From sequence record MT446416.1: a DNA stretch of 64,000 bases. One strand, written 5' to 3'. Both the position numbers and the translations under genes were made by a program. The notes under the pieces are model-generated. The model searched no databases. It was not told the origin of the DNA and saw only the letters and a program-made list of their open reading frames with translations. Shown here piece after piece: positions 6,571 to 51,737 of the stretch (position 1 is the stretch's first letter; every line of letters begins with the position of its first letter). The stretch comes from Escherichia virus TH47.

Positions 6571-6600
6571 TTTTGATAAGAATTAGTTTAGTGGGGATTT

Positions 6601-7095
6601 ATGAAGAAAAGATTAAAAGATAGTAAAGAAGCTGCAAACTATCGAAATGAATTACTAAAGAAGCAAAAAGGAATTGATCCTATAATTAAGGAACCAATAA
6701 CTAAGCCAGTACTTGATCACTATCACTTCGAGAATCAACACTGTCGCGGGGTACTCCAGAATGAGATAAACGCCTTTGAGGGTAAGGTTTCCAACGCATG
6801 GAACCGATATGGAAAGCATTTAACTGATATGCCATTACATGAAGTACTAAGAAATCTGGCAGATTATCTTGAAAAGAACAATAACATTCCACCTGAAGAG
6901 CAAGTCATACATCACACTGCACTAACTGTGGATGTTAATAAGTTTAAAAGGCTTCCAGCAACACAGCAAAACGCGATTCTGGAAGGGTTAGGAGTTGTCC
7001 CTGGTAGTAACGTCAAGGAGAGAACTAAGCAAGCCAGAAGGCTCATTAAGGACGGTAAATTAAATATGGTAGATGTAAAAAGAGATACAAAATGA
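6601..7095 (+). CDS. Endonuclease VII-like nuclease (gp49-like His-Me finger; Zn-ligand cysteines absent)
   Basis: LDHYHFENQHCRGVLQNEINAFEG aligns by eye to remembered T4 EndoVII HLDHDHELNGPKAGKVRGLLCNLCNAAEG (D/H/H and N/E catalytic positions kept; the four Cys absent). Confidence 0.5.
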   Translation: MKKRLKDSKEAANYRNELLKKQKGIDPIIKEPITKPVLDHYHFENQHCRGVLQNEINAFEGKVSNAWNRYGKHLTDMPLHEVLRNLADYLEKNNNIPPEEQVIHHTALTVDVNKFKRLPATQQNAILEGLGVVPGSNVKERTKQARRLIKDGKLNMVDVKRDTK

Positions 7096-8114
7096 AAATA
7101 TCATTACCAAACGAAATAAACTTAAAACACATAAATTACAATACAAAAATGCCACAAGAATATTTTGATGATTTAAGTAAGAGATTATCAAAATATGACA
7201 TTATTTTTAATGGATTTATAATTGAAGATGAATGGAAAGGTAATAACACGTTAACTTCTATAGAATGTGAAGGAAACCTCTACAACAACTATCGAATTAA
7301 TAAATTATACAGATATATTAAACGTATGGATACAAAAGGATATCAGAAACCTAAAGGTTTTAACTTAACCCCTGAACTATTGGTACAAAACGTCAACGAT
7401 GAATGTATAAAACGTGGTGGTAAGATTGAATTTATTGGTTATAAACAATTTAATGGTGCAAAAACATATTTGGAATTGAAATGTAATGATTTGGAATCAC
7501 ATGATGAACCATATGAGTGGTGTTCAACGATTTATGATAGTTTTGTCGGAAACAATAGACATTTGAATGGTTGTCATAAATGTTCAGGTAGATATCATTA
7601 CACTATAGAAGAACTTAACAATAATATAAATTATTTTTGTGAAACACGTGGATTCGTAAACCCAGTATTGATAACTAATGAAACTATGAATGGTGTTAAT
7701 AGTATTGTTTCATTCACCTGTCATTGTGGTGAGAAAGCAACGATGACATATGATAGTTTATCACGTGCTCGTTTTTGTATATTATGCAGCGAAGGTAGTT
7801 ATAAACAATATATTCCTGGTTCATTGTATGTATTAGAAGTATATAAAAATGATAAACATGTGGCATATAAATTTGGTATATCAAACTATGTCCCAAAACG
7901 CCTCATGGAATATGGAAAATCTCCATGTAATGTTAAGATTATTCATCAATATGATTTTGAAGATGGTTCTATTCCATATAAAATTGAAAATAAAATAAAA
8001 AACTCATTACCAATCAGATATCTTACCAAAAATGAGTTCGGTGTAGGATATACAGAAACGATAGATACAACTTTATACGAAGATTTAATTAATATTATAA
8101 AAAAGGGAGCATAA
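7092..8114 (+). CDS. AT-rich Cys-rich protein with C-terminal GIY-YIG/T5orf172-like motif (putative homing-endonuclease-like gene)
   Basis: ATGA overlap with upstream gene; markedly lower GC than neighbours; several CxxC/HxC pairs in N-terminal half; C-terminal LYVLEVYKNDKHVAYKFGIS...PKRLMEYG resembles GIY-(10)-YIG plus conserved Arg. Confidence 0.4.
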   Translation: MKISLPNEINLKHINYNTKMPQEYFDDLSKRLSKYDIIFNGFIIEDEWKGNNTLTSIECEGNLYNNYRINKLYRYIKRMDTKGYQKPKGFNLTPELLVQNVNDECIKRGGKIEFIGYKQFNGAKTYLELKCNDLESHDEPYEWCSTIYDSFVGNNRHLNGCHKCSGRYHYTIEELNNNINYFCETRGFVNPVLITNETMNGVNSIVSFTCHCGEKATMTYDSLSRARFCILCSEGSYKQYIPGSLYVLEVYKNDKHVAYKFGISNYVPKRLMEYGKSPCNVKIIHQYDFEDGSIPYKIENKIKNSLPIRYLTKNEFGVGYTETIDTTLYEDLINIIKKGA

Positions 8115-8126
8115 GCTCCCTTTTCT
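8105..8126. terminator. Bidirectional rho-independent terminator between convergent genes
   Basis: GGGAGC-ataa-GCTCCC hairpin flanked by A-run upstream and T-run downstream; stop codon of 7092..8114 lies in loop. Confidence 0.6.
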
Positions 8127-8130
8127 GTTA

Positions 8131-10278
8131 TTAATAGATATCATCAATTGTACAGTAACTTATAGTACTAAAACCATCTTCTTTAGTTACTTTAAGTATA
8201 TGTTCAGTCTTAGAAACTAGTTCTTCTCTATGAGAGATGATATATACATTTTTATTTCTGATAGCAGCCATGTCATTGAAGATTGACCACACTTTAACAA
8301 CACCACTTGAATCAAGACCAACATCACAAGCTTCATCTAGTGCTATTAGATTGATACTTTGGTATAATGACTCATATGTATCACGGAAAGCACATGATAA
8401 AGCAATGTTTACCCTTGTACGCTCACCACGACTAAGCTGTTTATAGTCAAAGTACTGACCACTTTTCTCAATTTCTACACTCAAATCATTCAAGAACACA
8501 ACATTATGTTCAGAACCACACATATCAATGTAATATTGAAGACGTGTATTCAGATACGAAATGTTTTGTTCAATAATACGCTTACGGACATAAGAATCCT
8601 TGTTTAACAACAATTTAACCAAGAAATCTTGGTGATTTGCCATCTTATCAAGGTTATTATAGTCACTATAGTCGATTGGTACTAATGAATCGGTAGTAAG
8701 TGTATTAATTTGTCCAATAAATGTGTTAGTAGTTTTCAATTCACGATCTAATTGCTGTGATAATGAAGTTACTGTCATTTCTAACTCTTTTACTTCAGAT
8801 TTATTCAATGTATCTGGTACTTCTTGAAGAACATGTGCGTTCAGTTCTTCATATGATGACATAAGTTCATTAGCATAGATGTTAATTTGCTCTTCTTCAC
8901 TCTTTTTAATAAGTTCTTGAAGCTTATGCTCATGCATTTGTGCTTCAGTTAGTGTAGAATAGAATGTCACAGGCTTAGGTGGCATATCAAAAATCTCAAT
9001 ACTATCAATTTCCTGAAGTATTGTTTCAATTTCAGAAGTGGAACTATCAATTTTCGATTGAAGTTCATTAATAGTATTTTGAATTTTATCTTTAATAGAC
9101 GAAGTATGTTCATTATGTTCTAATTCGGACATACAAAGTGGACATTTACTACTCTCCACTGTTGCTAATTTGTCCACCTCAGCACGTAACGAACTCTCAT
9201 GACCATTTAAAGCCACCTTTAATGCGTTAAGTTTTTGTTCTTTGAAACGTTTTTGGTTATTATTCTCTTTTAGAATACCCTCCAATTGTTTCCATATCTC
9301 CAACTCATTGTGATTTTCTAATTCAGTACTGATATCAATAGTTTTTAGCTTATCAATACTTACATTTAATGCTAATTTTGCTGTTGCTAGTTCACGGTCA
9401 TATGCATCATACTTCAAAGCTAACTCTTGCACACGTCTTTCTATTTGATCACGAGCAGCATTATGAATAAGAGCTTTCTCTTTCACTTCTGCCAAATCAT
9501 AGAGATCGTTGAAGTCTAAAGTTTTGTAGATATTCAATTCTTCAGTCAACTTAGATACTCTATTATTTTTATCAATCTCAAATTGGTTAGCTTGTTCTTG
9601 TAATGATTCAATACTTTTTTGAATACGTTCATTACTTGCAGCCACAGTTTCAATTTTGAACTTTTCTTGTTCAGCTAAACGTTTAGAATCTTTATACATA
9701 TCCTTTAATAGTTCAGCTTTCTCTGTTAATTGTGTGATGCCCAGAAGTTCCTCAATCATATCACGTTGTTTCTGTGATGATAATGCAAGAAACGGCTCTA
9801 CGTTAGCATTAAGTACTACAATATGTTCAAATAGTAGTTGAGAAATCCCAAGAATCTCGTTTAGATCTTCTTGTGTATCTTTCTTCTCCCCTCTTGACTC
9901 ATCTTCGACCTTATTATCTTTACCTAATGTAATAAAGTTGAAATACGTGGGACTTCTCCCACGCTCGACGAGATATTGTACACCATCTTTCTCGAACTCA
10001 ACAGATACTTCACAGTTTTTAGCATTAGTTTTATTAACTAAGTTTGGAATTTTGATATCGTTACCAATACTTTTTCCAAACAAACCAAAAACTAAACCTT
10101 GAATGATGGCACTTTTACCAACACCATTACGGCGACCGGAACTATCACCACCTTCAATAACTGCATCATTGTTTTGACCAAGAACTAACGATATATCAGC
10201 ACCAGACAAATCAATTACTTGTGGTGCATTGCCAAATGAAAAGAAGTTCCTCATTGATATACGTGTAATGTTTAGCAC
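8131..10278 (-). CDS. SbcC/Rad50-like recombination ATPase (T4 gp46-like)
   Basis: 715 aa; N-terminal P-loop GRRNGVGKS, long coiled-coil middle, CPLC zinc-hook motif, C-terminal LIALDEACDVGLD Walker B/D-loop; GTG start with AAGGGA RBS; follows SbcD-like gene. Confidence 0.85.
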   Translation of the reverse strand: MLNITRISMRNFFSFGNAPQVIDLSGADISLVLGQNNDAVIEGGDSSGRRNGVGKSAIIQGLVFGLFGKSIGNDIKIPNLVNKTNAKNCEVSVEFEKDGVQYLVERGRSPTYFNFITLGKDNKVEDESRGEKKDTQEDLNEILGISQLLFEHIVVLNANVEPFLALSSQKQRDMIEELLGITQLTEKAELLKDMYKDSKRLAEQEKFKIETVAASNERIQKSIESLQEQANQFEIDKNNRVSKLTEELNIYKTLDFNDLYDLAEVKEKALIHNAARDQIERRVQELALKYDAYDRELATAKLALNVSIDKLKTIDISTELENHNELEIWKQLEGILKENNNQKRFKEQKLNALKVALNGHESSLRAEVDKLATVESSKCPLCMSELEHNEHTSSIKDKIQNTINELQSKIDSSTSEIETILQEIDSIEIFDMPPKPVTFYSTLTEAQMHEHKLQELIKKSEEEQINIYANELMSSYEELNAHVLQEVPDTLNKSEVKELEMTVTSLSQQLDRELKTTNTFIGQINTLTTDSLVPIDYSDYNNLDKMANHQDFLVKLLLNKDSYVRKRIIEQNISYLNTRLQYYIDMCGSEHNVVFLNDLSVEIEKSGQYFDYKQLSRGERTRVNIALSCAFRDTYESLYQSINLIALDEACDVGLDSSGVVKVWSIFNDMAAIRNKNVYIISHREELVSKTEHILKVTKEDGFSTISYCTIDDIY

Positions 10279-15605: not shown

Positions 15606-18272
15606 ATGGCAGATACAAGTAAGAAATATGCCCAACAACAGTTGGGTCGTTTTGACCCTTCGTATCCACAACTAGCAACCGTGATGGATAACCGTGACCC
15701 AACTAAATCCGGTAAGCTAAAAGTGTGGATTCAAGGTTCACAAAGTGATAAAAATTCAAAAGAGTCATGGATTGAAGCATCATACATGTCTCCATTCGCT
15801 GGTAAAACTCCAGGGATACCAAGTGCTGATGCTTATGGTCAATATCCAAAGGGATATGGTTTTTGGGCGGTTCCACCTGATGTCGGATGTACTGTTGTTG
15901 TTATATTTGCACAAGCAAGAACATTCCAAGCGTATTGGATTGGTTGTGTTTATGACCAACGTATGAATACGATGGTTCCTGGAATGGCTACTGAAATAAG
16001 CAACTATGCTGGTACTGATATGCCATTACCCGTAACTGATTATGACCGTAATACAATTTCTACCAGTACACAAGACAAATATGCAAACGTTCCAATTATT
16101 GCAGGTCTGAAAAAACAAAACTTACTTTATGATGAGGAAGCGGGTGTTGCTAACCGTAGCAGTACTCGCCAAACTACCAGTACGGTTTATGGTCTTTCAT
16201 CACCTCGTGGTAACAGTTTTATTATTGATGATGGTTACACAGAAGAAGAATTAACAGCACCTACATGGGATCAAGATCCAGATGGTTATCAGGATACACA
16301 ATTCAATAACCCAGTAAACGATACTCGCGTTGGTTCTCGTAAAAATGAAGGCGTTGTAATTAAAACACGTAGTGGTGCACAGTTGTTGTTATCTGAAGCC
16401 TCTGGTGATGTTCTTTTAATTAACCGTGATGGTACTGCACGTATTAAATTCACTGGTGAAGGTGACATTGAAATGCACTGTGATAAGAATATTAACATTC
16501 GTGCAGGACAAGATATTAACATGGTTGCTGGTCGCTCATATAATATTGAAAGTGGAGCAGACTTCAATGCTCGTGTTGGTGCAAACACTAAACTAGATTT
16601 GGTTGGTGCATTGGATGCTAAAGTTGGTGGTCAGGTTGTTATTAACGCTGGGGCAGATTTACGTTTAGTAACAGCAGCTTCATTACGTATGCAAAGTGGT
16701 AGCAGTACTGATATAACTGCTGGTTCTAATGCGTCAATCTCTGCTGCTACCAGTGCTAATCTTATTGGTTCTTCATCAGCTATTATTAGTGGTGGTGGTC
16801 AAACTCTTACTGTTAACAGTGGTGGTAATAGTGGTACTGCTGAATTTAATGCACCAAACTTCCGCACCCCATCTGCTGGCTTGAATGAACATATACATGA
16901 TATATCGGCTTGGGTTGATGCAGAGAATCACGGCAGTACTGTTGAACCTCCACGTCAAGGTGGTGGTAGTGGGAATAGTGAATCCCCAGTTCAACCTGAA
17001 CCTGCTAATGATGTAGCTCCAACTTTAGCTCCAGTACAGGACACTGAAGCAATTCAATATGTAAATTATACAACAGAAACAGAACAAGTTCAAACACAAG
17101 ATTTAATGACTTCTGATCCTGGCATGGCTGGTTATAGCATTACGTATGAAGGTCTTCATATGTTCATGCCGTGTAGTGGAACCATTCGCCAATACGGTTA
17201 TTGGGGGAAAGGTGTCCCGACTAGTGGTGGTGGTAAAGCTGATAGAAGTGGCTGGGAAATACAGTGCAAGGGTGATGTTGTAGCTCCAGATGGTGGTGTA
17301 GTTGTTATCACGAATGGTGCTTTATTGGTTCAACATAAGTCTGGATATAAATCTGTATTTTATAATATTCAATCAGATTTGCTCAATAAAGACGTTGTTC
17401 AAAAAGGACAAGTACTGGGGAAAGCTAATGGTGTTATTCAATTTGAAATAAGAGTTACCTCTGCCAACGTACTGGGATTTAGTGGTTCAGTTGACCCTGG
17501 ATTATTCTATGCATCGCAGACTGGTACAGGTTCTGAAGCGGGAAATAAAACATTAATTGCAGGACAAGCAACGAACCAAGCAGCACCGAAAGCTGTTGTT
17601 CAACCTTCTGTTGATAGTGATGAATTAGTTGTCTCCACTAAAATTAAAACCATCGGTACTGGATATTCACAACGTGGTTCTAGGCATGTCCCTCGTCGTA
17701 GAAGAACACAACGTTCAGGTGGTAGTACCGCAGCACCAACTGCACAAGAATCATACAATGTTGGTAATGTTGACAAGACGGCAATTGACTGGAAAGTTGT
17801 TCCTGGTGATTCACAATTTATTTCCGAATTGAAAGAATATGAAGGGACAATGGCGTATCAACAAGCTAAAGGATATTACCGAAATGGTAAATTCTGGAGA
17901 TATTTAGACAGTCGTGGGTTCCCAACCATTGGTTACGGACACTTGATTGTTGGTGGAGAAAACTTCTCTGGTGGTATTACCGAACAGGAAGCCAATGATA
18001 TGTTAGTTCGTGATAGTAGTAAAGCTATATATGATGCCAAATCAATCTACGCTTCTTATAAGATGAAAACACCTTACATGGCACAACAAGTCCTATGTCA
18101 AATGGTCTTCCAGATGGGTAAAGGTGGAGTAATGAAATTCAAGTCAATGCTATCTGAAATGGCGAAAGGAAACTATAAGCAAGCTGCTGCTCAAATCCGA
18201 AATTCTGCTTGGTATCGCCAAACAACTCGTCGTGCTGAATTAATGGCACGAAGATTAGAGGCATGTCAATAA
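15606..18272 (+). CDS. Baseplate central spike protein, gp5-like, with C-terminal T4-lysozyme-type (GH24) domain
   Basis: 888 aa; middle Gly/Ser/Ala-rich beta-repeat region; C-terminal EYEGTMAYQ...TIGYGH...MVFQMGKGG matches T4 lysozyme catalytic region (E, D, T positions present). Confidence 0.8.
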   Translation: MADTSKKYAQQQLGRFDPSYPQLATVMDNRDPTKSGKLKVWIQGSQSDKNSKESWIEASYMSPFAGKTPGIPSADAYGQYPKGYGFWAVPPDVGCTVVVIFAQARTFQAYWIGCVYDQRMNTMVPGMATEISNYAGTDMPLPVTDYDRNTISTSTQDKYANVPIIAGLKKQNLLYDEEAGVANRSSTRQTTSTVYGLSSPRGNSFIIDDGYTEEELTAPTWDQDPDGYQDTQFNNPVNDTRVGSRKNEGVVIKTRSGAQLLLSEASGDVLLINRDGTARIKFTGEGDIEMHCDKNINIRAGQDINMVAGRSYNIESGADFNARVGANTKLDLVGALDAKVGGQVVINAGADLRLVTAASLRMQSGSSTDITAGSNASISAATSANLIGSSSAIISGGGQTLTVNSGGNSGTAEFNAPNFRTPSAGLNEHIHDISAWVDAENHGSTVEPPRQGGGSGNSESPVQPEPANDVAPTLAPVQDTEAIQYVNYTTETEQVQTQDLMTSDPGMAGYSITYEGLHMFMPCSGTIRQYGYWGKGVPTSGGGKADRSGWEIQCKGDVVAPDGGVVVITNGALLVQHKSGYKSVFYNIQSDLLNKDVVQKGQVLGKANGVIQFEIRVTSANVLGFSGSVDPGLFYASQTGTGSEAGNKTLIAGQATNQAAPKAVVQPSVDSDELVVSTKIKTIGTGYSQRGSRHVPRRRRTQRSGGSTAAPTAQESYNVGNVDKTAIDWKVVPGDSQFISELKEYEGTMAYQQAKGYYRNGKFWRYLDSRGFPTIGYGHLIVGGENFSGGITEQEANDMLVRDSSKAIYDAKSIYASYKMKTPYMAQQVLCQMVFQMGKGGVMKFKSMLSEMAKGNYKQAAAQIRNSAWYRQTTRRAELMARRLEACQ

Positions 18273-18284
18273 ATATTTCAGTAC

Positions 18285-18292
18285 TATAAATA
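18285..18292 (+). promoter_or_regulatory. Candidate T4-type late promoter (TATAAATA) for lysozyme gene
   Basis: Exact TATAAATA 18 nt upstream of ATG 18310; second AATAAATA at 18268..18275. Confidence 0.4.
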
Positions 18293-18309
18293 ATAATGAG
18301 GAAATCTTT

Positions 18310-18798
18310 ATGAGTAAATGGGAAATCAAAAATACCGACGAACAATTTTTTAAAGAAATTAAAGAATTTGAAGGTACTATTGCGTATCAGAAAAAACTTG
18401 GTTATTTTAAAAATGATAAGTTTTGGGTATATAAAGACAGTCTAGGTCTTGATACCATTGGTTACGGTCACCTTGTACTTAAGGGTGAAAGTTTCAAAAA
18501 TGGACTCACTGAAGCAGAAGCTGATGCTCTCCTTATAAAAGATGCTCAGACCGCTTACAATGACGCAAAATCAATCTATGATCAATTTGGAATGACTGCT
18601 CCAGTACAGGTTCAGCGTGTATTGTGGTTTATGGTGTTCCAAATGGGTAAATCAAAAGTTTTAAATTTCAAAAAAGCGATGGCTGCTCTTGGTCGTGGTG
18701 ATTATAAAACTGCTGGTAAAGAAATGCGTGATAGTACGTGGTACAAACAAACCACATCCAGAGCGGAGAAGATGGCTCGAATCGTCGAATCCGTATAA
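18310..18798 (+). CDS. e: T4-type lysozyme (endolysin, GH24)
   Basis: 162 aa; EFEGTIAYQ...DTIGYGH...MVFQMGKS match T4 lysozyme hallmark motifs (TIGIGH, MVFQMG) with catalytic Glu/Asp/Thr positions conserved. Confidence 0.9.
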   Translation: MSKWEIKNTDEQFFKEIKEFEGTIAYQKKLGYFKNDKFWVYKDSLGLDTIGYGHLVLKGESFKNGLTEAEADALLIKDAQTAYNDAKSIYDQFGMTAPVQVQRVLWFMVFQMGKSKVLNFKKAMAALGRGDYKTAGKEMRDSTWYKQTTSRAEKMARIVESV

Positions 18799-18813
18799 TA
18801 AAGGAAACACATA

Positions 18814-19209
18814 ATGGCAATTGTTTTTAAAGGTTTTTCAACTCCAGTAGTTGGAAGAACTGAAACATTGTATGACAGTGAATTGGTTCGTCAGGATTTA
18901 ATGAATCATTTCAATACAAAAAAAGGTGAACGTGCATTTGATGCTGATTATGGGTTCATTGCGTGGGATTTGCTATTTGAATTGGATGGTTATAATACAA
19001 TCAACCTTTTGGAAGCAGATGCCCGTAGAATTATTAGCTTGGACCCACGTTTAAGCTTAAAGAAACTTCAAATATCAAGAATTGAGTACGGTTATCAGAT
19101 GGATATAGTACTTGAATATGTTGTTCTCAATACTCTTGAAGAATTAACTATAGTTTTTGATGCAAGAAGTAACAACAGAATGGCTACCTATTCTGTATCA
19201 TCTTTGTAA
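18814..19209 (+). CDS. Baseplate wedge protein gp25-like (GPW/gp25 family)
   Basis: 131 aa; KGERAFDADYGFIAWDLLFE aligns with T4 gp25 KGSRPFDPEFGCDLSDQLFE; size matches. Confidence 0.8.
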   Translation: MAIVFKGFSTPVVGRTETLYDSELVRQDLMNHFNTKKGERAFDADYGFIAWDLLFELDGYNTINLLEADARRIISLDPRLSLKKLQISRIEYGYQMDIVLEYVVLNTLEELTIVFDARSNNRMATYSVSSL

Positions 19210-19216
19210 ATTATAA

Positions 19217-19246
19217 AAGCACTCTTCGGGGTGCTTTTCTTTTTGG
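19217..19246 (+). terminator. Rho-independent terminator (likely partial, within operon)
   Basis: GC hairpin (AGCAC-tcttcgg-GGTGCT) followed by TTTTCTTTTT. Confidence 0.45.
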
Positions 19247-19279
19247 ATAAATATTTCTATATAATTCATGGAGTGATGT

Positions 19280-19987
19280 ATGAAAAGTTATTATGGTTTC
19301 ATTTATCAATGGGAAGATAGCACCAATGGTATAAAATACATAGGTTCTCATTATGGAGCAACAGATGACAATTATGTGTCATCTAATGTTATAGTTAATA
19401 GAATTTATAAGGGAAGACCACAGGATTTATCAAGAACAGTTTTAGAATATATTATAGTTGATGATAAGAAATTTTTATTGGAGAGAGAACAAAAATACTT
19501 AGATTTGATATTACCCTCTGAATTGTACACGAGTTTAAACAGAAAAAATAAAACCGTGAAATATTACAACATGAAAAGGAATGCATGTGGTGGTAACGGT
19601 GGTGTAGGAAGTAATGGTATGTTGAAAAATAAAATAAAATATTTTAACAAACATACATTTGAACAAAAATTCTTTAGTAGTACTGACATTATACCAGATG
19701 ATTGGGTTAAAGGTGTACCATCCTCAAAGGTTAGCTGTACTGGAAGCACTTGGTATCTGAATATCAAAACTGGGGAAAATAAAAGATTTAAGAATAATCC
19801 AGGTATTGAATGGATTGAAGGTAAACGTAATATTTCAACAACACCAAAAAAAGTAAACACTCCGTATGGAATTTTTGAAAGTGCATCTGAATGTGGTAGA
19901 CAGACTGGGATAAAACAAGCAACTGTAACGTTTAGGTGTCGTTCAAAATCATCTAATATGGCAAATTGGTTTTATATAGAGGAATAA
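19280..19987 (+). CDS. GIY-YIG homing endonuclease (Seg-like)
   Basis: N-terminal YGFIYQWEDSTNGIKYIGS is a canonical GIY-X10-YIG motif with downstream conserved Arg and Glu; low GC; inserted between conserved baseplate genes. Confidence 0.8.
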   Translation: MKSYYGFIYQWEDSTNGIKYIGSHYGATDDNYVSSNVIVNRIYKGRPQDLSRTVLEYIIVDDKKFLLEREQKYLDLILPSELYTSLNRKNKTVKYYNMKRNACGGNGGVGSNGMLKNKIKYFNKHTFEQKFFSSTDIIPDDWVKGVPSSKVSCTGSTWYLNIKTGENKRFKNNPGIEWIEGKRNISTTPKKVNTPYGIFESASECGRQTGIKQATVTFRCRSKSSNMANWFYIEE

Positions 19988-19990
19988 ATT

Positions 19991-22900
19991 ATGTCACAAC
20001 AAAAAAGACAATCCAATTTATACGCGGGGGAAGATTGGACCCAGGTATATGAAAGCTTTTACAAAATCAATCTCACGGCATTTGATTACGATACCATTCG
20101 TCAAAGTATGATAGACTATCTCCGAACTACATATCCAGATTCGTTTAACGACTGGATTGAGAACGACCAGTTTATTTTTATTCTAGATACAATATCTATG
20201 CTGGGGCAGAACTTAGCGTTTCGTATGGATCTTAATACACGCGAAAACTTTTTAGATACTGCAACTCGTCGTGCATCCGTACTGAAACTCGCAAAAATGA
20301 TTTCTTACTTTCCACGCCGTTCATATCCAGGTCGTGCAGTTGCTAAATTAACAGAAATAAAAACCAACCAAGACGTTCGTAATAGTTTTAACGAATCACT
20401 TAAGGATAAAATCATTCGTTGGAATGACCCAATGGACACAAACTGGTATGAGAACTTCATTCTAGTTATGAACAGTTCATTTGTCAGTACTAACCAATTT
20501 GGTAATCCGGTTAAACGTATCGATATCAATGGTGTTTCTCGTCATCTATATCGCATGAATACAATTCCAATGTCAGCCCCAAGTCTCCCATTCACTGCTA
20601 CAGTTAATGGTGAATCGATGACATTTGAAGTTGTCAACCCTGATATTACGGCAGTTGGTGTTGAAGAGCGTCACCCCGAACCACAAGAGCAAAAATATAT
20701 AGTTTATCAGAATGATGGTAATGGATTTAGTTCACCAAATACTGGTTTCTTTGTTTATTTTGTTCAAGGGACATTGACATACCAAGATTTCCAATATAAT
20801 ATTCGAGAAGAAAACCGAATTCAAGATATCAATGTTGATAATATCAACGAAACTGATGTTTGGGTTCAGGAAATCAACGAAGATGGTATTGTTCGTACTA
20901 AATGGACCAAAGTTCCATCTATGGAAAGTATCGCATACAATACTGTTAACCGTCAACTAAAAACAATCTTTGCTGTCACAACTCGTGATAAAGACCAGAT
21001 TACTATTAAGTATCCTGATTCTCGTAGTGGTGTTGTTCCTCGTGGGACGTATCGTGTATGGTATCGTGTTAGTAATGGTGAAACATACAACATTAAAACC
21101 TCTGAAATCCAGAACAAAAGTGTAAAATACACCTATAGAACCAAAACACAATCAAGCTACGAATCCAGTACTTTGGATATTCGTTTCACATTGCAATATG
21201 AGTCAGATCGTGCACAAAGTGCAGAAACAATTGAACAAATTAAGGCTCGTGCTCCACAAATGTATTATACTCAAAACCGTTTTGTTAACGGAGAAGACTA
21301 TAACATTGCTCCGTTGAGTTTGGGTAACACAGTTCTTAAATCTAAAGCAATTAACCGTTTATATAGTGGTCAGTCACGATTTATTGATATTAATGACCCA
21401 ACTGGTAAGTATCAAAACACTGATGTGTTTAGTGATGATGGTTCAATGTATCAAGAAAAAACACAATTTAATAAATCATTACAATTACCAACTACCAAAA
21501 CAAATGCTAGTATTGCAATTGATAATATTCAGCCATTGATTGGTGAGAATGCTGTAATACAACGTTATCAAGCATATCCACCGAATACAATTGGTATTGA
21601 AATTCAACAAAAATGGACACCTGAATACAATTCTAATTACGCAACTAATACGTATGGTCGTATTATGGGGGCAACAGGTAACGTATTCGTAAATTATCAA
21701 GTTGGTACGTTGATTAAGTTTTCAAATGCTGGAACTACTGTGTGGGCTAGTATTGTTAGTGTTCTTGATAATGGATATTACGTTCTAAGTACTTCAGTTT
21801 CATCAAATATGCAAGCACAAGAGTACATTTTACAATACAGAACACGTTTTAATAGTGTCGAAGTACAAGCAATCTCTGCAATGCTTGATAAAAAGACAGA
21901 TTTTGTTATTATTCATGATAAAGAAACAACTTCTTGGCTTCCATTAGAAATCAGTACTGATGAAGATACTATTTCTTATAATGGAAATGAAGTTCTTGTT
22001 ATGATTAACATCAAATATACTGCTGAAACATGGGAATTTTATGCGAATGGCGTTGAATATGTGTTCGTTGGTGGTGATAAAGTTCGTTTTTACTTCGTTT
22101 CTTCTAAAAAGATAACTGATATTAGTACTGGTAGTGTTCAGAGTGACAAAATTGAAATTTTATCATCAAATACCACAAGTAATAGTAATGCTGGGTTGAC
22201 AAGTAACATAGATTTCCAAATTTATGACACAATTCAACAAGAAAACGGGTATCTTGATGGTTCTCGTGTGGTTATCACCTCTGAAAACGTTGATAGTAAT
22301 GGAATCCCACTAGAACCTAATCAATTCAGAGAAATTGTACCAAATTGGACTGGTGAAGATTCAGTTAAATATGGTGGTATATTGGTTTTCCAAGAAAATG
22401 ATGATTTCACTATATCAGTACTGTCATTACCGAACGATACTTTCACTATTCTTGATTCTTCATGGGCTTATACAATGGAACAGGCACTTGCAGAAACTAA
22501 TGCGTATAAGAGAAGTGAATTTGTTCGCAACAATGCTATTCGCTCAACAACATTGAGTGGTATCTATAGTAAAGGTTCAGGCTTTATGGTTGGCTTTAAA
22601 TACGATGGTAAATATTACTTTATAGAACAAACTGTTGGTAATAATAATGATCGTTTAAACCAATTAATTGAGAACTTGACCTATTCTGATGACACAACTG
22701 CTGCAACTCCTGAACTTGCGTTTTATCGTGCTATTGTTAATATCGGAACTAATGCTGATGCTAACCAAAAGTTAGATTATTATGGTTATAAAGATGTAAC
22801 TTCACAATATACAGTAAAAACGAATGCAAGAACTGGTATTGATTTCCACTGGAAACATTATGCACCAGATGATAATCGCATTGACCCAAGTAGAACAAAC

Positions 22901-23452
22901 TTGATTGACATGTATGTATTAACCAATTCATACAAAACTGAAGTTGATGTATGGTTGAAGAATGGAACACAAGGTAATATGCCTAAGCCTCCAACATCTG
23001 TTGAATTGAAAGACATTTTTAAAGAAGTTGAACAAAAAATAGTCATCAGTGACAGTATTATTTGGCATAGTGCAGAATATCTACCATTATTTGGTGCGAG
23101 TGCTGATGAAGATTATAAAGCAGATTTCAAAGTCGTCAAATTGCCTAACAGTACAATGAGTGATGATGAAATTCGTCAAAATGTCGTAGCACTAACTAAC
23201 GAGTATTTTAATGTTGACAACTGGGATTTTGGTGAAAGTTTCTATTACACAGACTTGTGTACATACATTCACTCCCAATTAGGACGACATATTAGTACTA
23301 TTGTTATCGTAGCTCAAAACCCTAACTCTAAATTTGGCTCACTATTTGAAATCCCTTCACGTTCTGACCAGATTTTCTTAAGTACTGCATCAGTTGATAA
23401 CGTACAGATAGTCAATTCCTTGGCTAAGAGTAACATTAACATTGGTTCATAA
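19991..23452 (+). CDS. Baseplate wedge protein, gp6-like (baseplate J family), enlarged
   Basis: 1153 aa; N-terminal region (FDYDTIRQSMIDYL...LDTISMLGQNLAFRMDLNTRENFLDTATRRASVLKLAKMISYFP) follows gp6/baseplate-J N-terminal pattern; GAGGA RBS located inside the upstream endonuclease gene. Confidence 0.6.
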   Translation: MSQQKRQSNLYAGEDWTQVYESFYKINLTAFDYDTIRQSMIDYLRTTYPDSFNDWIENDQFIFILDTISMLGQNLAFRMDLNTRENFLDTATRRASVLKLAKMISYFPRRSYPGRAVAKLTEIKTNQDVRNSFNESLKDKIIRWNDPMDTNWYENFILVMNSSFVSTNQFGNPVKRIDINGVSRHLYRMNTIPMSAPSLPFTATVNGESMTFEVVNPDITAVGVEERHPEPQEQKYIVYQNDGNGFSSPNTGFFVYFVQGTLTYQDFQYNIREENRIQDINVDNINETDVWVQEINEDGIVRTKWTKVPSMESIAYNTVNRQLKTIFAVTTRDKDQITIKYPDSRSGVVPRGTYRVWYRVSNGETYNIKTSEIQNKSVKYTYRTKTQSSYESSTLDIRFTLQYESDRAQSAETIEQIKARAPQMYYTQNRFVNGEDYNIAPLSLGNTVLKSKAINRLYSGQSRFIDINDPTGKYQNTDVFSDDGSMYQEKTQFNKSLQLPTTKTNASIAIDNIQPLIGENAVIQRYQAYPPNTIGIEIQQKWTPEYNSNYATNTYGRIMGATGNVFVNYQVGTLIKFSNAGTTVWASIVSVLDNGYYVLSTSVSSNMQAQEYILQYRTRFNSVEVQAISAMLDKKTDFVIIHDKETTSWLPLEISTDEDTISYNGNEVLVMINIKYTAETWEFYANGVEYVFVGGDKVRFYFVSSKKITDISTGSVQSDKIEILSSNTTSNSNAGLTSNIDFQIYDTIQQENGYLDGSRVVITSENVDSNGIPLEPNQFREIVPNWTGEDSVKYGGILVFQENDDFTISVLSLPNDTFTILDSSWAYTMEQALAETNAYKRSEFVRNNAIRSTTLSGIYSKGSGFMVGFKYDGKYYFIEQTVGNNNDRLNQLIENLTYSDDTTAATPELAFYRAIVNIGTNADANQKLDYYGYKDVTSQYTVKTNARTGIDFHWKHYAPDDNRIDPSRTNLIDMYVLTNSYKTEVDVWLKNGTQGNMPKPPTSVELKDIFKEVEQKIVISDSIIWHSAEYLPLFGASADEDYKADFKVVKLPNSTMSDDEIRQNVVALTNEYFNVDNWDFGESFYYTDLCTYIHSQLGRHISTIVIVAQNPNSKFGSLFEIPSRSDQIFLSTASVDNVQIVNSLAKSNINIGS

Positions 23453-23496: not shown

Positions 23497-23532
23497 AATC
23501 AAATGAATGAACGAATTATATGGAGTCCAAAA

Positions 23533-26500
23533 ATGACTAATAATTTTAAGTTTCAACCTACACAGATGGCTGAAGCAGTACAGAAGAAGCTTTTCATAAA
23601 AAGATTGCCTGAGTGGATGCAAGGCTTAGAAGATATTCAGAAAGTCAGTGATGATGTTATCCAACAATGGTTTAATCCGGCTGAAAACGAATTAGTTGAC
23701 GGCTACATTGGTGACATGGGTTCTCCGGCAGCAGCAGGGAACATCTTCTTACACGAGTCAACAGTCGCACGTCAACTATATCAGTTGTCCACTGCGTATG
23801 TCTCAAGAAATAATGACTCCAGCATTCGTTCAATTCAATTTTATGATGATCTAGTTGGCTATATGAATCATTACGGTGCACTAACCGAAAATGAAAGCCG
23901 TTTGTTTAATGGTAAGTTCTATTCATGGACCCCACCAATTAACCCAAATAAAATGAACAACTACAGTTCATACCTATGGGATTCCAAGAATAGCTATAAT
24001 ATCACAACTCCAGATTATATTGTTATGGAACGTGGTGCAGAAAATGGTAACACTTGGTCACTACAAAACTTCTGGTACACATTAGGTGAAACTTTAGAAG
24101 ATGGTACTATCCTAACTGAAGAACTAATGCAAGATTCCCGTTTTGTTCGTGCTCGTGCACCAATTATCGAATACAATAAAAATATCGAACTAATGAACTA
24201 CGGTACTAAATTCCGTGGAACAGTTGATTTGTTCTCTGATATTATTAAACCAGAAGATATCGTACAAAAAGATATTAACAGCGGTATACGTATCGATGGT
24301 ATTATTCCACAAGATGGTATGCGTATACTTTTCACCAGTATTGGTAACAATGGTGAAAACAACAGAATTTATAAAGTATATGTTAAACGTATGCAAGATG
24401 GAACACGTGTGTATGGTCTAGCATTAGATCCAGACGAAGAATCTGAAAGCCGTCCGAGTGGTGAACCACAAGATGGTGACGTAGTTCTTATTATCAAAGG
24501 TAATGAATTTGGTAACAGTTCCATGTATTGGAACGGTTCTCATTGGATTCAAGCACAGTCTAAAACTTCTGTGAACGTATTTCCACAATTCCAATTGTAT
24601 GACCGTAATGGTGTTAAACTAAACAACACTACTACCTATCCATCAAGTACTTTTACTGGTTCTTCACTATTTGGTTTTAAAATTAACTATAATTATGCAA
24701 CTGATAGCGTTTATGGTTATAACATTGAACTAGGTGATTACAATTATTACACATATGAGAATTTCCTACAATCAACTCGTTATACTTACGAGCATTTGGG
24801 TGTGGAAGTTGAAATTGATGGACTATATTACTATAACGTAATTGGTGAAGGTAATACAATGAACCTAGAAACTGATTGGGTTCGTAGTACTGAATACTCC
24901 AAACAATATGTTAAACAAACTCCACAGGTTGAACGTACAGTAATGTTTCGCGTGTTCAGTACTGTTTATGACATGGAAAGTTTCAAAGATCCAGTTGAAG
25001 GAATGTATGCTTATGTAATTGAAGTTGATAGAACATATCAATATTACAAAGCAGAACGTGAAACATATCTTGATTGGCATGTTATCGTTGGTGATGGTGT
25101 ACAAAGCGTTAAGTACAATCACACATTTGAATTGGCACAAAAAGTACTAGATAATTCTGATGATATTATTGAACTAGTTGTTGATGGTGTGGAAATAAAA
25201 GAATACACCAAAACTGTAGTTAATAATCAAGTACAAAGTATTACAATTGATAGCTCTGTTGATTTGGATGAAGATTCTGTTGTACAAATCAGAACTTATA
25301 GTAGCACTATCACTCCAAATAAAGAATTGGGTGCATATGAAGTTCCAATTAACCTACAAAATAACCCATATAATTCAAACATTGAATACATCAACCAAGG
25401 TGATTACACCCAGCACTTCCAAGATATTATTCAAAAGAATATTACATCTGGTTCTGCTGATGACTTTAACAATTACGAAGAACGTTTGGCTTCTGGTTTG
25501 GTTAATAATGGTGTAGGCACTAAAATTATTCAAAACGAAGCGTCCATGTTACCACTAATGGCACATACCGCTAATGAAGATATTGATTTGTTTGAATCAA
25601 TCATGTTTATGCAAGCAGAATACTTCCGCTTCATTAACAAGTTCAACACTCAAATGCTTCGTTTGTATGAAGAAGATCCAAGTGCTTTTCTTGGTAATAG
25701 TGCATCAAACATCGTAGATGCGATTCTAACAGCTATTAATATGGGACGTGATAGTACATTCCCATTCTACTATGACAACGTTGCAAGCACTGCTGGGTTT
25801 ATTCGTGCATTTGTCCCACCAACTCCACAGTTCTTGGGTATTTTGCAAGCTTATACACCACAAAAAGCAACATTCTTAACTGCTGGTAGTAAATCTAGCT
25901 GGTATAATATCAGTCATACTGGTATTATTTCAAAAGCATACCGTGTTATCAATGGTGTTGATAAAATGGATGACGTTGTTTTCGAATTGGAGAATCGTAT
26001 CTTTAATAGTATCGATCTTACTTTCAAGGATATTGATTATAAACCAGTACTAAACAGTGAAGATCTATTCCCAACTCCATATTTCACTGGTACTGATTAT
26101 AGTGCAGAAGAAAAGAAAACTCTATTGCTACGTGGTTACATTAACTTCACAGCAACCAATGGTATTAGTAACAGTACTCATGATTATGATGCAAATAACT
26201 GGAGAACTTGGAACTATACTGGTAGTTATTATGTTGTTGATGGTCAACGTACTGAAATTCCTGCTCGTGGTTCATGGCGTGCAATCTATACTGACCAATA
26301 CGGCACATATCGTCCAGCAACCCATCCGTGGGAAATGATGGGCTTCTCTCAACGTCCTACTTGGTGGAACCAAGAATACGAACCAACCGCAGTTCAAGTT
26401 GGTGAACGTGAAGGTGATGTTGTTTATGTGTATGAAGCACTAGTAATGAATGAAAGTGGTGATTTGGTCCCAAGTGGTTTGTGGGATATTGATGGTACTA

Positions 26501-29500
26501 TCGGTGACAGCAGTACTGGTACTATTTTGTCAGGTGAACGCCGTGGTCAATATGACAAATACAAGCGTTTCGGTGTACAGCCATTTAAAATCACTAAGAC
26601 TGGCGAGAAAACCAGCACTGGTATTGATATTTGTGAAGTTGAGTATATTGCACCTGAAGTTTTAGGTCTTGTTAGTGGTAATTTGGATCATCGTGCAGAA
26701 CCGTGGGCTTATGGTGACATGGGTGACATGGAATTCACTTACATGAACACTGCGATGTTTGCTTATGACCAAATGCTTCTTCTATACAAAGCAAAACCAG
26801 CACAGTTTGCAAACTATTACTGGGATACCCGTAATGATAACCTTAAACCAGTTTATACTGATGGTTCACAGTTCCTTTATGGTGAAACCCGTAAGCGTCT
26901 AAACTTTGACAGTACTACATTAGTACATGGTGAGAAAAATACCCGTACTATCGGTTATCAAATGTTTGTTAGTGACTATTTGATGTATCAGAACAAGAAC
27001 ATTACCACCAAATACGGTGACGTTGTTCGTTCTTCTTATGTCAATGTCGCTCACAAAATTGGTGGCTTTACTAAAGCAGACCAATTGACATTCACTGCTA
27101 AATCTTTCGGTTTGATTTCACAAGAAAACCAAACTATCGGTCTAGTTCGTTCCAATAACATTCTCGATGAGCAAATGAGTGCAGTAAAAATTACTTGGAA
27201 TGGTAGTGCATATCAAATTGATGGTTATGATTTAGTTGGTGCTAAATTTAAATATAAAATTCCAGTTAAAAATGGAAGAAAAGTAACTCTTAAATTGGAA
27301 GACAGAACTGTTGTTCATTACAATGAATGGAAATCTGAAGGTACATTAGAATATGGTAAAATATTCAATACATACCAAGAAGTTTATACTTTCATTTGTG
27401 GATATGGTGAATATCTAAAAGAACATGGCTGGATTTTTGAAGATGTAAATGATAGTGGTGCTCAACAAGACTGGACAACTATTGCTAAAGACTTTGTTAT
27501 TTGGAGTCAGAATAGTTTAAGTACTGGCGAGTTCATCTCCTGTACTCCAAGTGCAGCTAATGCTAAATTTGGTGCAGATTTTGGTTCAGTTCAATCTGTT
27601 ACACAGAACAGTGGTGGTGTTTGGTCATTACTTGATGATGAAAACCAAGGTATCCGTCAATATGAAATCGAAACTTCGCGTATCGGTAACGTATTCACAG
27701 TGAGAACTACATCCGAATCACAAAAACGTATGGCGTTGATTCGTTTGAGCCTAAGTTCATATGAACACGCAGTTGTTTTTGATGATAAAACTATCTTTGG
27801 TGATTTCATTTACCAACCAACTTATGGTGCTATTCAAGAATTGATTAAAATGTATGGTTACATTACTGGGTCATGGACTGGTCGCCTACAAGCACCTGGT
27901 TTCATTATCCTAGAAGCAGGAACTTTACCATCATTTGAAAAATTAGTAACTGATTTTGATTTATATTATAATAGTGAAACTCCTGTGAGTGATGTTCAGC
28001 TTCAAGAGTTATCAAATCACTTGATTGGCTATCAAACTCGTGATTATCTACAACGTATGATTAGTAGTGATGTTAGTCGTGTTGATTTCTATAAAGGATT
28101 CATTCATGACAAAGGTACTAACCAAGTAATGGAAAAAGTACTACGTGTTTCTAAATCTTACGACACTGATGAATATAAAGCACTTCAGGAATGGGCATTT
28201 AAGATTGGTACTTATGGTAATATCAATGGTAAGAAAAATCTACAATTTAAACTAATCAATGACCAATTTAAACAACAACCACAGATGGTTTCGTTTGATG
28301 TTAATGCTACATCAAATGGTACTGGTAATGGTATTGTTTATTACGGTGAACAAGGGGTTGACCCACGCTGGATTACTCGCCCAAATGGTAAGTTTTCATT
28401 CCCAATGCGTAGTGGAAGAAGTGAGAACATTCAACTTCCAGACATTGGCCCTGTAACACTAGATGAAATTTCATATGTTACTAAAGATTTCAGTACTGCA
28501 TATAATGATCGTATCAATTATATGAATAACAGTGGTGAAATCCCAGATTCTGTATGGATGTTTAAAGATGGTAATGATTTGTGGAATATTTTCGAACTAG
28601 TAGACACTGAAGTTGAGATGCTCTCTATCGTTCCAATTGAAAATACCGATGTATATGCAGAACAATTCTGTAAAGTAACTCTAAGTGATGATATCCCACT
28701 AAATGATGGTGATTATTATTACTTTGTTGATGAAACTAACTTTATGCCAGATACATTGACTATAGAAAGTCAATATTATACTGCGGGTAATGACCCTAGA
28801 GTTATGGTAGTTCCGTTTGACACTTCAATCACTATTGACTTCACTGATCCTGATACTCGCCCACGCTTGTATCGTTATGTTTCACGATTCAGTACTGAAG
28901 AGATGCGTCAGGAATACATTGACAGAAAATATAGTTTTAAAGCTCCACAAAGTACTTTGTTTGACCGCCCAACCACATATGATGAGCGTACTAACATTAC
29001 TGCGTTGTACCTAAACGTGTTTGACCCAATCAACGGTGTTATTCCTGGTGCAGCGATGCAGAACGTTACCTACACATCTCCAGTTGACCCAGCACAATAC
29101 AACAGCAATGGTGAATTGATTCAAGCATGGGGTGCTGATAAAGTTGGTCAGGTTTGGTGGAACACCAGCACTGCTTTCTACTTAGATTACACTCGTGCAA
29201 TCTATGATGCTGATGGTAATGTGGATGTTGATGCAACAAATGAATATAAACGTTATAACTGGGGCAGATTGCTACCGCACAGTACTGTTGATGTTCTTGA
29301 ATGGGTATGTTCGCCAGTTGAACCATATAACTGGGACAAATACTGCAAAGACGTTGCTAACAAAAATAAAAACAACACTATGTACCTACCAAGCGGAACC
29401 GCATTGGAAGATAATTATAGTACGTTCTTAGAATATGATAGCACAACTGATACTTATGTTACAAAATACTATTTCTGGGTGCGTGATACAATCTATGTGC

Positions 29501-50891: not shown

Positions 50892-50911
50892 TAATTATAA
50901 TAAAAAAAACG

Positions 50912-50935
50912 GTGTCATCAATTATGGTGACACCA
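50912..50935 (+). terminator. Possible terminator hairpin (weak U tract)
   Basis: GGTGTCA-tcaattatgg-TGACACC stem-loop after stop at 50891; T-run weak. Confidence 0.3.
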
Positions 50936-50957
50936 TCTTAACAAGTGAGGTAGTTAT

Positions 50958-51737
50958 ATGTTTACATATGTAAAAGGTAGTTCTAAAGAAAATTATGAAT
51001 TGGGTAACATCATCTCCAACCCAGTTGGTGTTAAGGGTTTAAAAGAACGCCCTGGGGCAACTCCAGATGATGAACAAACATATCGTTATTTGTACAGTGA
51101 TATTCGTGCACTTTATGGTATTTCAAGTAAAGATGGTTCTGAAATTGAACCTAATAACGCTGTTCGCAAAGAAGAGGGTTTCTGGTGGTTGGAATATAAG
51201 AATGTTGGTAATGTGAACGCAATTAATGAGAATTTGGAATATATTAAACTACAAGATAGTAATCAACCAGTCATCACATTCTTAGAAGAAGCAGAAGGTG
51301 AATATAAAGAGTTAACAGTACTGAAAACTTATAATTATGTTGATATGGACATTGCAGCAGTTAAATCTGATCTGAAAGCACGCACAGTATCATCTCGTAG
51401 TGATCGTATTAATGCTGGTTATATGTTTAACGGTCATCGTTATAGTACTGATCTAGCTGGTCGTCAAATGCTTCTTAATTATTATACACAAGTAACTTCC
51501 GGTTCTGATAGCGTTTCGATTTTCCTTGATGACGCAATTGTAAAACTATCTGCTGCTGAAATGACTCAACTATACACTGAAGCATTTGCTATGGTTGAAT
51601 CCCTATTTGCAGAGTGTAATAAGCAATGTGCTGACATTGATGCAGTTCCTGATGCTGATGAAGATGCAATTTATAAAGCACAACAGGCGGCTGTATGGGT
51701 ATATGAAGGTATTGATATTCCTGAGCGTACTCGTTAA
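50958..51737 (+). CDS. Putative tail-fibre assembly/chaperone-like protein
   Basis: 259 aa immediately downstream of giant fibre gene; C-terminal region reminiscent of tail-fibre-assembly-like proteins; weak assignment. Confidence 0.35.
   Translation: MFTYVKGSSKENYELGNIISNPVGVKGLKERPGATPDDEQTYRYLYSDIRALYGISSKDGSEIEPNNAVRKEEGFWWLEYKNVGNVNAINENLEYIKLQDSNQPVITFLEEAEGEYKELTVLKTYNYVDMDIAAVKSDLKARTVSSRSDRINAGYMFNGHRYSTDLAGRQMLLNYYTQVTSGSDSVSIFLDDAIVKLSAAEMTQLYTEAFAMVESLFAECNKQCADIDAVPDADEDAIYKAQQAAVWVYEGIDIPERTR

Follow-up and report, generated by a model that had tools for sequence, protein, structure and literature searches.

A probable Seg-type GIY-YIG homing endonuclease gene at the gp25-gp6 baseplate junction of an Asteriusvirus jumbo coliphage

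How did a nuclease-like gene come to lie between two baseplate genes of a jumbo coliphage? We addressed this question in a 64,000-nt stretch of Escherichia virus TH47 (MT446416.1; the whole stretch is called the window below), which belongs to an Asteriusvirus-type jumbo coliphage of the 121Q/PBECO4 group. The gene is the open reading frame (ORF) at 19280-19987. A first-pass annotation, made from the letters alone, had described it as a textbook GIY-YIG homing endonuclease gene of markedly lower GC that had invaded the junction of a gp25-like and a gp6-like gene. We consider it likely that this ORF is a free-standing Seg-type GIY-YIG homing endonuclease gene at the gp25-gp6 junction, acquired by recombination and homing as in T4. 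The three genes concerned are:

19280..19987, + strand: GIY-YIG endonuclease gene, free-standing and Seg-type, ATG start, 235 aa
18814..19209, + strand: gp25-like baseplate wedge gene, upstream neighbour (Pfam GPW_gp25, 1.5e-8, above cut-off; PHROG 43 'baseplate wedge subunit', 2.2e-15)
19991..23452, + strand: gp6-like baseplate wedge gene, downstream neighbour (PHROG 10646 over the full length, and PHROG 219 'baseplate wedge subunit')

The Pfam GPW_gp25 and PHROG baseplate wedge matches bear out the position between gp25-like and gp6-like baseplate genes. The 121Q homologue of the window gp6 gene is annotated as T4 gp6-like, and the N-terminal ~60 residues of gp6 are strongly conserved in all relatives compared. 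A group I intron-embedded ORF was excluded, as gp25 and gp6 are complete separate genes and 18300-20600 gave no Rfam match at E up to 1, so that no intron or RNA element was found around the endonuclease gene.

The N-terminus of the protein (MKSYYGFIYQWEDSTNGIKYIGSH) reads Y-G-F-I-Y(9)-QWEDSTNGIK-Y(20)-I-G(22), i.e. a GIY-x10-YIG motif with the same 10-residue spacing as I-TevI. We found that T4 SegE was the closest characterised protein (hhalign probability 97.5%, E 7.8e-12, 160 columns), in an alignment that spans two IPxx(W/F)xKG motifs C-terminal to the catalytic domain. I-TevI was aligned over its full length (probability 93%, E 3.6e-7), with E70 paired with the catalytic E75 and Y96-N97 with Y89-N90; the C-terminal part of the I-TevI sequence used agrees with the PDB 1I3J chain. 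Seven residues were invariant among 50 aligned subfamily sequences (W11, G22, Y32, E70, L74, Y96, N97), and G6, Y9, H24, R46 and others were at least 90% conserved in the same set. Of the catalytic residues, the GIY tyrosine, the YIG tyrosine and glycine, E70 and N97 are in place on alignment. PHROG 314 'homing endonuclease' was also matched (1.9e-14), and the beta-beta-alpha-beta-alpha core fold was found.

The protein is laid out as a catalytic domain (residues 1-~107), a linker (~118-190) with the two IPxxWxKG-type motifs and an I-TevI-like helix-turn-helix (~192-235). The alignment to the I-TevI DNA-binding domain 1I3J takes in the C-terminal ~45 residues and runs through to the terminal WFYI. 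A profile of nine homologues matched PDB 1I3J at E 9e-5 (residues 167-234), and PF20987 was matched by 8 of the 9 (best 4.1e-6). No zinc finger was seen in the linker: a CxC/CxxC pattern is not conserved, and C220 is the sole invariant cysteine. On the strength of the motif, the profile matches and the missing intron, we assigned the protein to the Seg-type free-standing GIY-YIG endonucleases, with an added I-TevI-type helix-turn-helix. With dN/dS at 0.1-0.3, the gene is under purifying selection and is kept functional by it.

Full-length homologues numbered nine (51-100% identity), and in a profile search of 1.84 billion representatives the N-terminal domain had over 1,100 relatives at E<=1e-10, some of them carrying NUMOD1, NUMOD3 or I-TevI DNA-binding modules. 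Searching 50,697 phage records by tblastn gave distant relatives only (<=41% identity, mostly in the N-terminal domain), from phages of Rhizobium, Sinorhizobium and Vibrio. The IMG/VR protein search gave only N-terminal-domain relatives at ~40% identity, and GTDB genomes gave no match to the protein. Family members are labelled 'hypothetical' or 'uncharacterised' protein in public records.

To place the gene among relatives we used a 2.7-kb query around the ORF, which matched 34 phage records, 9 at ~96.5% identity (EC.P1, Turkey3 and others) and 25 at ~86%. The endonuclease ORF was present in none of these 34 related GenBank Asteriusvirus records, where the aligned span was ~2,020 bp as against 2,701 bp in the window. 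A second sample, of ~70 metagenomic junctions, was drawn via gp25 and not via the endonuclease. None of its 69 resolved junctions had an intact intervening gene, and one further contig (L036) ends within a GIY-YIG copy, i.e. about one junction in 70. An IMG/VR search via gp25 returned 121Q itself and one distant locus only. The carriers, for their part, were found via the intact protein, a route by which degenerate copies would escape. Eight homologues (51-84% identity) were looked up, from jumbo-phage relatives at increasing distance, and each of them is flanked by gp25 and gp6. The gene is sporadic but strictly site-specific, and a universally conserved occupant of the junction it is not.

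We then compared the junction itself across these loci. The elements of the window and their counterparts elsewhere are:

19268..19979, + strand: window-specific segment of 712 bp, replaced in the closest relatives by a 31-bp scar of the gp584 gene
19215..19244, + strand: intrinsic-terminator-like hairpin and T-run 3' of gp25, with a 10-pair stem AAAAGCACTC-TTCG-GGGTGCTTTT followed by CTTTTT (terminator scan)
19247..19253, + strand: ATAAATA motif, putative late promoter, inside the conserved GATAAATATTTCTATAT block
19270..19273, + strand: Shine-Dalgarno GGAG of the endonuclease gene, 6 nt 5' of the ATG at 19280
19979..19983, + strand: Shine-Dalgarno GAGGA for gp6, within the last endonuclease codons ATA GAG GAA TAA
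L002 2480-3244 (121Q) and L004 3978-4742 (JNE01): gp584
L020 1087-1339, L026 2887-3080, L027 2875-3048 and the Turkey3/PBECO4/EC.P1 intergenic region: degraded remnants of gp584 type

Comparison with EC.P1, Turkey3 and PBECO4 gave a length difference of 679 bp, in agreement with the BLAST spans. In 121Q, JP4 and JNE01 the same site is occupied by gp584, an unrelated gene of 254 aa that is annotated as an HNH endonuclease and matches PHROG 559 'HNH endonuclease' (1.6e-57). Pfam gave no HNH match for gp584; it gave DUF723 (zinc-finger-like) and a sub-threshold DUF2726 (nuclease-like), and the protein has the motif IEYDGEQH, so the family label may be inaccurate. The junction was never occupied in L021, L024, L025 and dozens of more distant loci, where gp6 follows gp25 after ~6-100 nt. 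In the three named loci this spacer holds a terminator, a conserved GATAAATATTTCTATA block and a Shine-Dalgarno sequence.

The two kinds of occupant are built into the junction in the same way. The leader TCATGGAGTGATGTATGAAA is identical 5' of the window endonuclease gene and of 121Q gp584. All GIY-YIG and gp584 alleles end (G/A)AGGA(A/T)TAA, 0-4 nt 5' of the gp6 ATG; in the window the stop codon is 19985-19987, and GAGGA lies 7 nt 5' of the gp6 ATG at 19991, so the ribosome-binding site of gp6 does lie inside the 3' end of the endonuclease gene, as had been noted from the letters. The Shine-Dalgarno sequence and ATG behind the promoter block are those of gp6 in never-occupied alleles and those of the endonuclease in occupied ones. 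Because ownership of the leader and Shine-Dalgarno sequence differs by allele in this manner, we conclude that the endonuclease gene sits between gp6 and the gp6 leader and donates a new ribosome-binding site.

The 'empty' Asteriusviruses do not have a pristine junction. Their allele carries a 39-nt scar, CCA GTA CTG AAC TAG TAC TTT ACT GAT TTA AAG GAA TAA, which translates as PVLN*YFTDLKE*, to be compared with the gp584 C-terminus SVLKKYFYDNFNILLKD*. The scar aligned to the gp584 3' end with p = 0.0025, and to the longer L027 remnant with a score of 41, compared with 14.7 +/- 2.6 in shuffles (0 of 2,000 as high). The L020 and L027 remnants in turn matched the gp584 C-terminus by tblastn (E 2e-8 and 3e-5). 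Such remnants are spread over several divergent jumbo-phage lineages. L027, a metagenomic locus, retains a mini-ORF, MTKKKTYDEDHISVLKEYFINIELKE*, and each gp584 remnant still has its 3' end, from which gp6 gets its ribosome-binding site; this may be why the piece was kept. We rejected the 31-bp segment of the 'empty' allele as a scar of the GIY-YIG gene: its similarity to that gene is at chance level (p about 0.5), and it matches the gp584 3' end. A resemblance of the gp584 C-terminal KYFY to the translated promoter block (DKYFY) was weak (E 0.07-0.4) and was taken as chance. As read from these alignments, the endonuclease gene replaced the scar of a different endonuclease gene and not a pristine site, and two nuclease families have occupied the junction over time.

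The gp6 side of the insert carries a footprint of recombination:

19991..20310, + strand: mosaic tract of co-conversion type at the gp6 5' end, with 46 differences from Turkey3 in 321 nt

The window and Turkey3 are 97.95% identical over 58.8 kb, and relative to this 2.05% background the gp6 5' tract has a binomial P of about 1e-24. The window agrees with JNE01 at 33 of the 46 variant sites, and positions 20076-20250 are 97.7% identical to JNE01 and 81.7% to Turkey3. Upstream, the window is 98-100% identical to Turkey3 up to the junction, with gp25 100% identical up to the insert; from ~20311 onward it is again ~98-100% identical. Identity to Turkey3 fell below 93% at four places only in 60 kb: beside the endonuclease gene, beside an insert at 7092-8114, in a rearranged region at ~50-51 kb and, marginally (92.7%), at ~17.5-18.0 kb.

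The insert at 7092-8114 is a second insertion of ~1.0 kb relative to Turkey3 (window 7085-8114), with an ORF at 7092..8114 (+ strand, 340 aa) between endonuclease VII-like and SbcC-like genes. Its product has CxxC-rich repeats and a C-terminal MUG113/T5orf172 domain of the GIY-YIG superfamily (Pfam 5.9e-5, above cut-off), and its flanks (6600-7084 and 8099-8550) are 72-89% identical to Turkey3, compared with a background of ~98%. This has the look of a further homing-endonuclease gene flanked by co-conversion tracts. The window at ~49950-51000 is 59-78% identical to Turkey3, which has ~4.6 kb extra; internal repeats there cross-match at 68-76%, and this is probably a variable repeat-containing structural or tail-fibre region.

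A second carrier, L007, was found among the Asteriusviruses. It is a complete 121Q-like jumbo-phage genome of 348 kb (GCA_902500125.1, contig CABVOQ010000005.1) in an assembly labelled Escherichia coli, where the endonuclease copy is annotated 'Uncharacterised protein [Escherichia coli]'. L007 is 99-100% identical to 121Q and has the GIY-YIG cassette in place of intact gp584. Its differences from 121Q cluster close to the cassette, with 8 sites in the ~150 nt before it and 12 in the 115 nt after it. When the window and L007 are compared, synonymous divergence is 0.54 for the endonuclease gene (dN/dS 0.16) as against 1.0-1.3 for lysozyme, gp25 and gp6. Taken together, the gp6 tract, the L007 comparison and the divergence values led us to conclude that recombination brought the cassette, along with short flanking tracts, into two different backbones. 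The sporadic presence of the gene, the mosaic tract in gp6 and this second backbone support the earlier description of it as an invasive mobile gene.

These results bear on a different history, in which the gene is an old resident of the junction, vertically inherited, lost in most lineages and perhaps kept for some benefit to the phage, and no longer homing. Among the distant carriers the endonuclease does diverge about as much as its flanks, its identity (53-67%) tracking that of gp25 and lysozyme (52-71%), which is compatible with long vertical residence; so are the low dN/dS and the constant site. Such a resident should not, however, have left the scar of a different gene, and no GIY-YIG scar, in the nine closest relatives, nor should those relatives be ~98-100% identical on both sides save for 320 nt of foreign sequence directly beside the gene. 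The presence of this cassette in a 121Q backbone also, with half the synonymous divergence of its flanks between the two Asteriusvirus carriers, is equally hard to reconcile with it. The carrier sample, found via the intact protein, would also have missed degenerate copies. We regard vertical residence as improbable.

Recombination by itself does not require an active enzyme. Ordinary homologous recombination during co-infection could have moved the cassette without help from its product, the gene being an inactive or passive passenger: recombination is free among jumbo and T4-like phages, it is all that the mosaic tracts alone prove, and the equivalent of I-TevI Arg27 is not identifiable in the alignments. 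Yet the ORF is full-length and under purifying selection, with all other catalytic and DNA-binding motifs conserved, and the sharp diverged patches in 60 kb coincide with the two nuclease-gene inserts, bar the rearranged region at ~50-51 kb. Repeated occupation of the site by two nuclease families, with remnants, is moreover the pattern expected of nuclease-driven homing. We therefore consider a passive passenger unlikely. The mosaic tracts show recombination, and by analogy with known homing systems the gene's own nuclease may have initiated it.

A number of results nevertheless weigh against the reading of the ORF as an active homing endonuclease. The protein's own Pfam matches are all sub-threshold: PF01541 GIY-YIG at 15.3 bits (cut-off 22.6; E 0.026), PF19835 SegE_GIY-YIG at 13.8 bits (cut-off 25; E 0.071) and I-TevI_DNA-bd at 17.4 bits (cut-off 27; E 0.0042). 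The mean pLDDT of the structure model, 62, is of low-to-moderate confidence. The I-TevI segment that bears the Arg27 helix (AKDFEKRWKR) aligns to a gap. The upstream crossover in the window lies within ~20 nt of the gene, an unusually short homology. To these are added the parallel divergence of gene and flanks in the distant carriers, as described above, and the finding that no nucleotide consistently separates carrier from non-carrier gp6 across distant lineages.

As the protein's own Pfam scores lie below the curated cut-offs, the class assignment rests on profile and fold evidence, and 'textbook' holds for the motif and not for the database signal. The subfamily appears divergent and poorly captured by the Pfam models: seven of the nine close homologues matched PF19835 with E up to 1 allowed (best 6.2e-5), and four of 50 relatives matched PF01541 (best 1.8e-5). 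The Arg27-helix gap is found likewise in T4 SegB, SegC, SegD and SegE, and SegB, SegC and SegE are listed as active enzymes (PMC2988022). R46 could substitute for I-TevI R27.

Homing as in T4 would then proceed as follows, with cleavage activity and a target site taken from the T4 Seg/I-TevI paradigm. Having captured the promoter and leader of gp6, the endonuclease gene would be expressed late. In the late phase of a mixed infection its product would bind endonuclease-less genomes at or near the junction, or at the conserved gp6 5' end, with the C-terminal helix-turn-helix and both IPxxWxKG motifs making the contact. A double-strand break would be made by the tethered GIY-YIG domain and then resected, and repair from a carrier genome would copy the gene and adjacent markers into the recipient, i.e. 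intronless homing with localised marker exclusion. Marker exclusion, which the first-pass annotation had raised, would follow from the same analogy. T4 intronless homing is the model here, and its sporadic distribution and flanking co-conversion tracts have been described (PMC2988022).

Both natural tracts include gp6 nt 1-115, and for this reason we place the break most likely between the insertion point and ~+115. The carrier genome would presumably be protected by differences in the target sequence. The only carrier-specific bases among Asteriusviruses, shared by both carriers, are ACC CAG in place of ACT CAA at gp6 codons 17-18, and these are, speculatively, a candidate immunity difference. 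As a general target or immunity mark this polymorphism was not established, since distant carriers and non-carriers share the sequence there.

A main role other than mobility was also considered, either as a DNA-binding regulator of the gp6 late transcript or as a nuclease directed against competitors or host DNA. The I-TevI-type helix-turn-helix is in keeping with the former, I-TevI being an autorepressor as well; the gene stands directly behind the late-promoter-like block and would be co-transcribed with gp6, and secondary roles of homing endonucleases have precedents (PMC2988022; PMC13096335). The similarity of the promoter and leader to the gp6 and gp25 flanks is, however, that of chance (p 0.3-0.96), and most relatives lack the gene, so that it is dispensable for gp6 expression. 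Such a non-homing main role is very improbable. An I-TevI-style operator was rejected on the same kind of comparison, as the leader (19240-19295) resembled the endonuclease-less gp6 5' and gp25 3' sequences at the shuffled level only (p 0.33-0.96).

The succession of alleles raises a further possibility, which we put forward tentatively: that the junction at the gp6 start codon is a long-lived landing pad, used in turn by two unrelated endonuclease families, each seizing the gp6 promoter and leader and supplying a ribosome-binding site from its own codons. If so, translation of an essential baseplate gene hangs on the 3' end of an invader, which would explain why the scars always keep exactly the piece with the gp6 ribosome-binding site. 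A GIY-YIG gene could then displace a resident rival endonuclease gene, a form of endonuclease competition and possibly a weapon in co-infection.

Among known systems the T4 Seg family (SegA-G) is the closest. Its members are likewise free-standing genes between conserved genes, with a sporadic distribution among related phages and flanking tracts resembling co-conversion. SegE has the same Seg-type catalytic domain, YIGxH...DDxYxxS, without the I-TevI alpha-1 insertion, and two IPxG(W/F)xKG motifs. T4 segC (L098 10197-10619) has an analogous neighbourhood, as it is part of the gp5-gp6 baseplate module, with genes 5.1 and 5.3 on either side. The window protein differs from SegE in its low identity (~31% only) and in the extra C-terminal I-TevI-type helix-turn-helix, which SegE lacks. 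The host here is a ~350-kb Asteriusvirus jumbo phage and not a T-even phage, and the insertion falls exactly at the gp6 translation start, seizing the gp6 leader and donating a new ribosome-binding site. Compared with I-TevI of the T4 td intron, the window gene is not in an intron, its protein has no zinc-finger Cys pattern in the linker and lacks the Arg27-bearing alpha-1 helix in alignment, and no operator-like similarity of promoter and target was detected.

SegH/Hef replacing mobC/mobE in T4-related phages appears among the references of PMC2988022. As in that case, one intergenic site is held here by alternative occupants: a GIY-YIG gene, an unrelated gp584-type gene, degraded gp584 remnants, or nothing. 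In contrast to it, both occupants share an identical 5' leader and end inside the gp6 ribosome-binding site, and the scar is the part that supplies this site. That homing endonucleases pass through cycles of gain, decay and loss is established theory. Seg-type homing endonucleases are already known and endonuclease alternation at one site has T4-related precedents; new are the unannotated subfamily, the Asteriusvirus host group and a natural record of unusual completeness at a single locus, with leader capture and ribosome-binding-site donation.

The locus is a clear but ordinary example that leaves established concepts unchanged. It would add the ~350-kb Asteriusvirus jumbo coliphages, a group in development for therapy, to the T-even phages as hosts of Seg-type intronless homing, and it keeps all stages of the life cycle: never-occupied junctions, each of the two families and degraded scars. 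Two independent replacements with mapped tracts offer a system for studying target choice, marker exclusion in structural-gene modules and endonuclease displacement. As a recombination hot spot, the gp25-gp6 junction will blur phylogenies of baseplate genes.

The remaining observations concern composition and the surroundings of the gene. The GC content of the ORF is 30.6%, compared with 36.8% for the window, 33.6% for gp25 and 34.8% for gp6. This places it in the lowest 2% of 708-nt windows; GC is indeed lower, and 'markedly' was somewhat generous for a moderate contrast. No second copy of either endonuclease (GIY-YIG or gp584) was found in the window by tblastn, and the shared endonuclease leader occurs there once.

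Between gp25 and gp6 lie the terminator and the promoter-like block. RNA folding reproduced the 19215-19244 hairpin, which is kept in all alleles, occupied and unoccupied, and the GATAAATATTTCTATAT block is likewise conserved ahead of whichever ORF comes first behind gp25, be the allele never-occupied, scar, gp584-type or GIY-YIG. Copies of ATAAATATTT(C) recur in the window, with 9 matches at <=3 mismatches compared with 3.1 in shuffles; one copy is 26 nt 5' of the lysozyme gene start. Copies are located at:

4603, - strand: ATAAATATTT(C) copy
6564: ATAAATATTT(C) copy
18269: ATAAATATTT(C) copy
19247: ATAAATATTT(C) copy
41574: ATAAATATTT(C) copy

ATAAATA is a proposed late-promoter consensus of Rak2-like jumbo phages (PMC5259590). 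Its recurrence here is consistent with a phage late-promoter motif, and the block would act as a promoter. A scan for sigma-70-type promoters found no enrichment over shuffles.

Downstream of gp6 lies a single ORF of 3,332 aa (window 23503-33501), conserved in all related loci, whose PBECO4 homologue is annotated as a virion structural protein. Upstream, an 888-aa hub protein (15606-18272) has a C-terminal lysozyme domain (~726-888) that is paralogous to the 162-aa lysozyme encoded immediately 3' (18310-18798); PHROG 13211 and Pfam Phage_lysozyme are matched by the two alike. Towards its 3' end (~17500-18300) the hub gene is 92-94% identical to Turkey3, somewhat more diverged than its surroundings.

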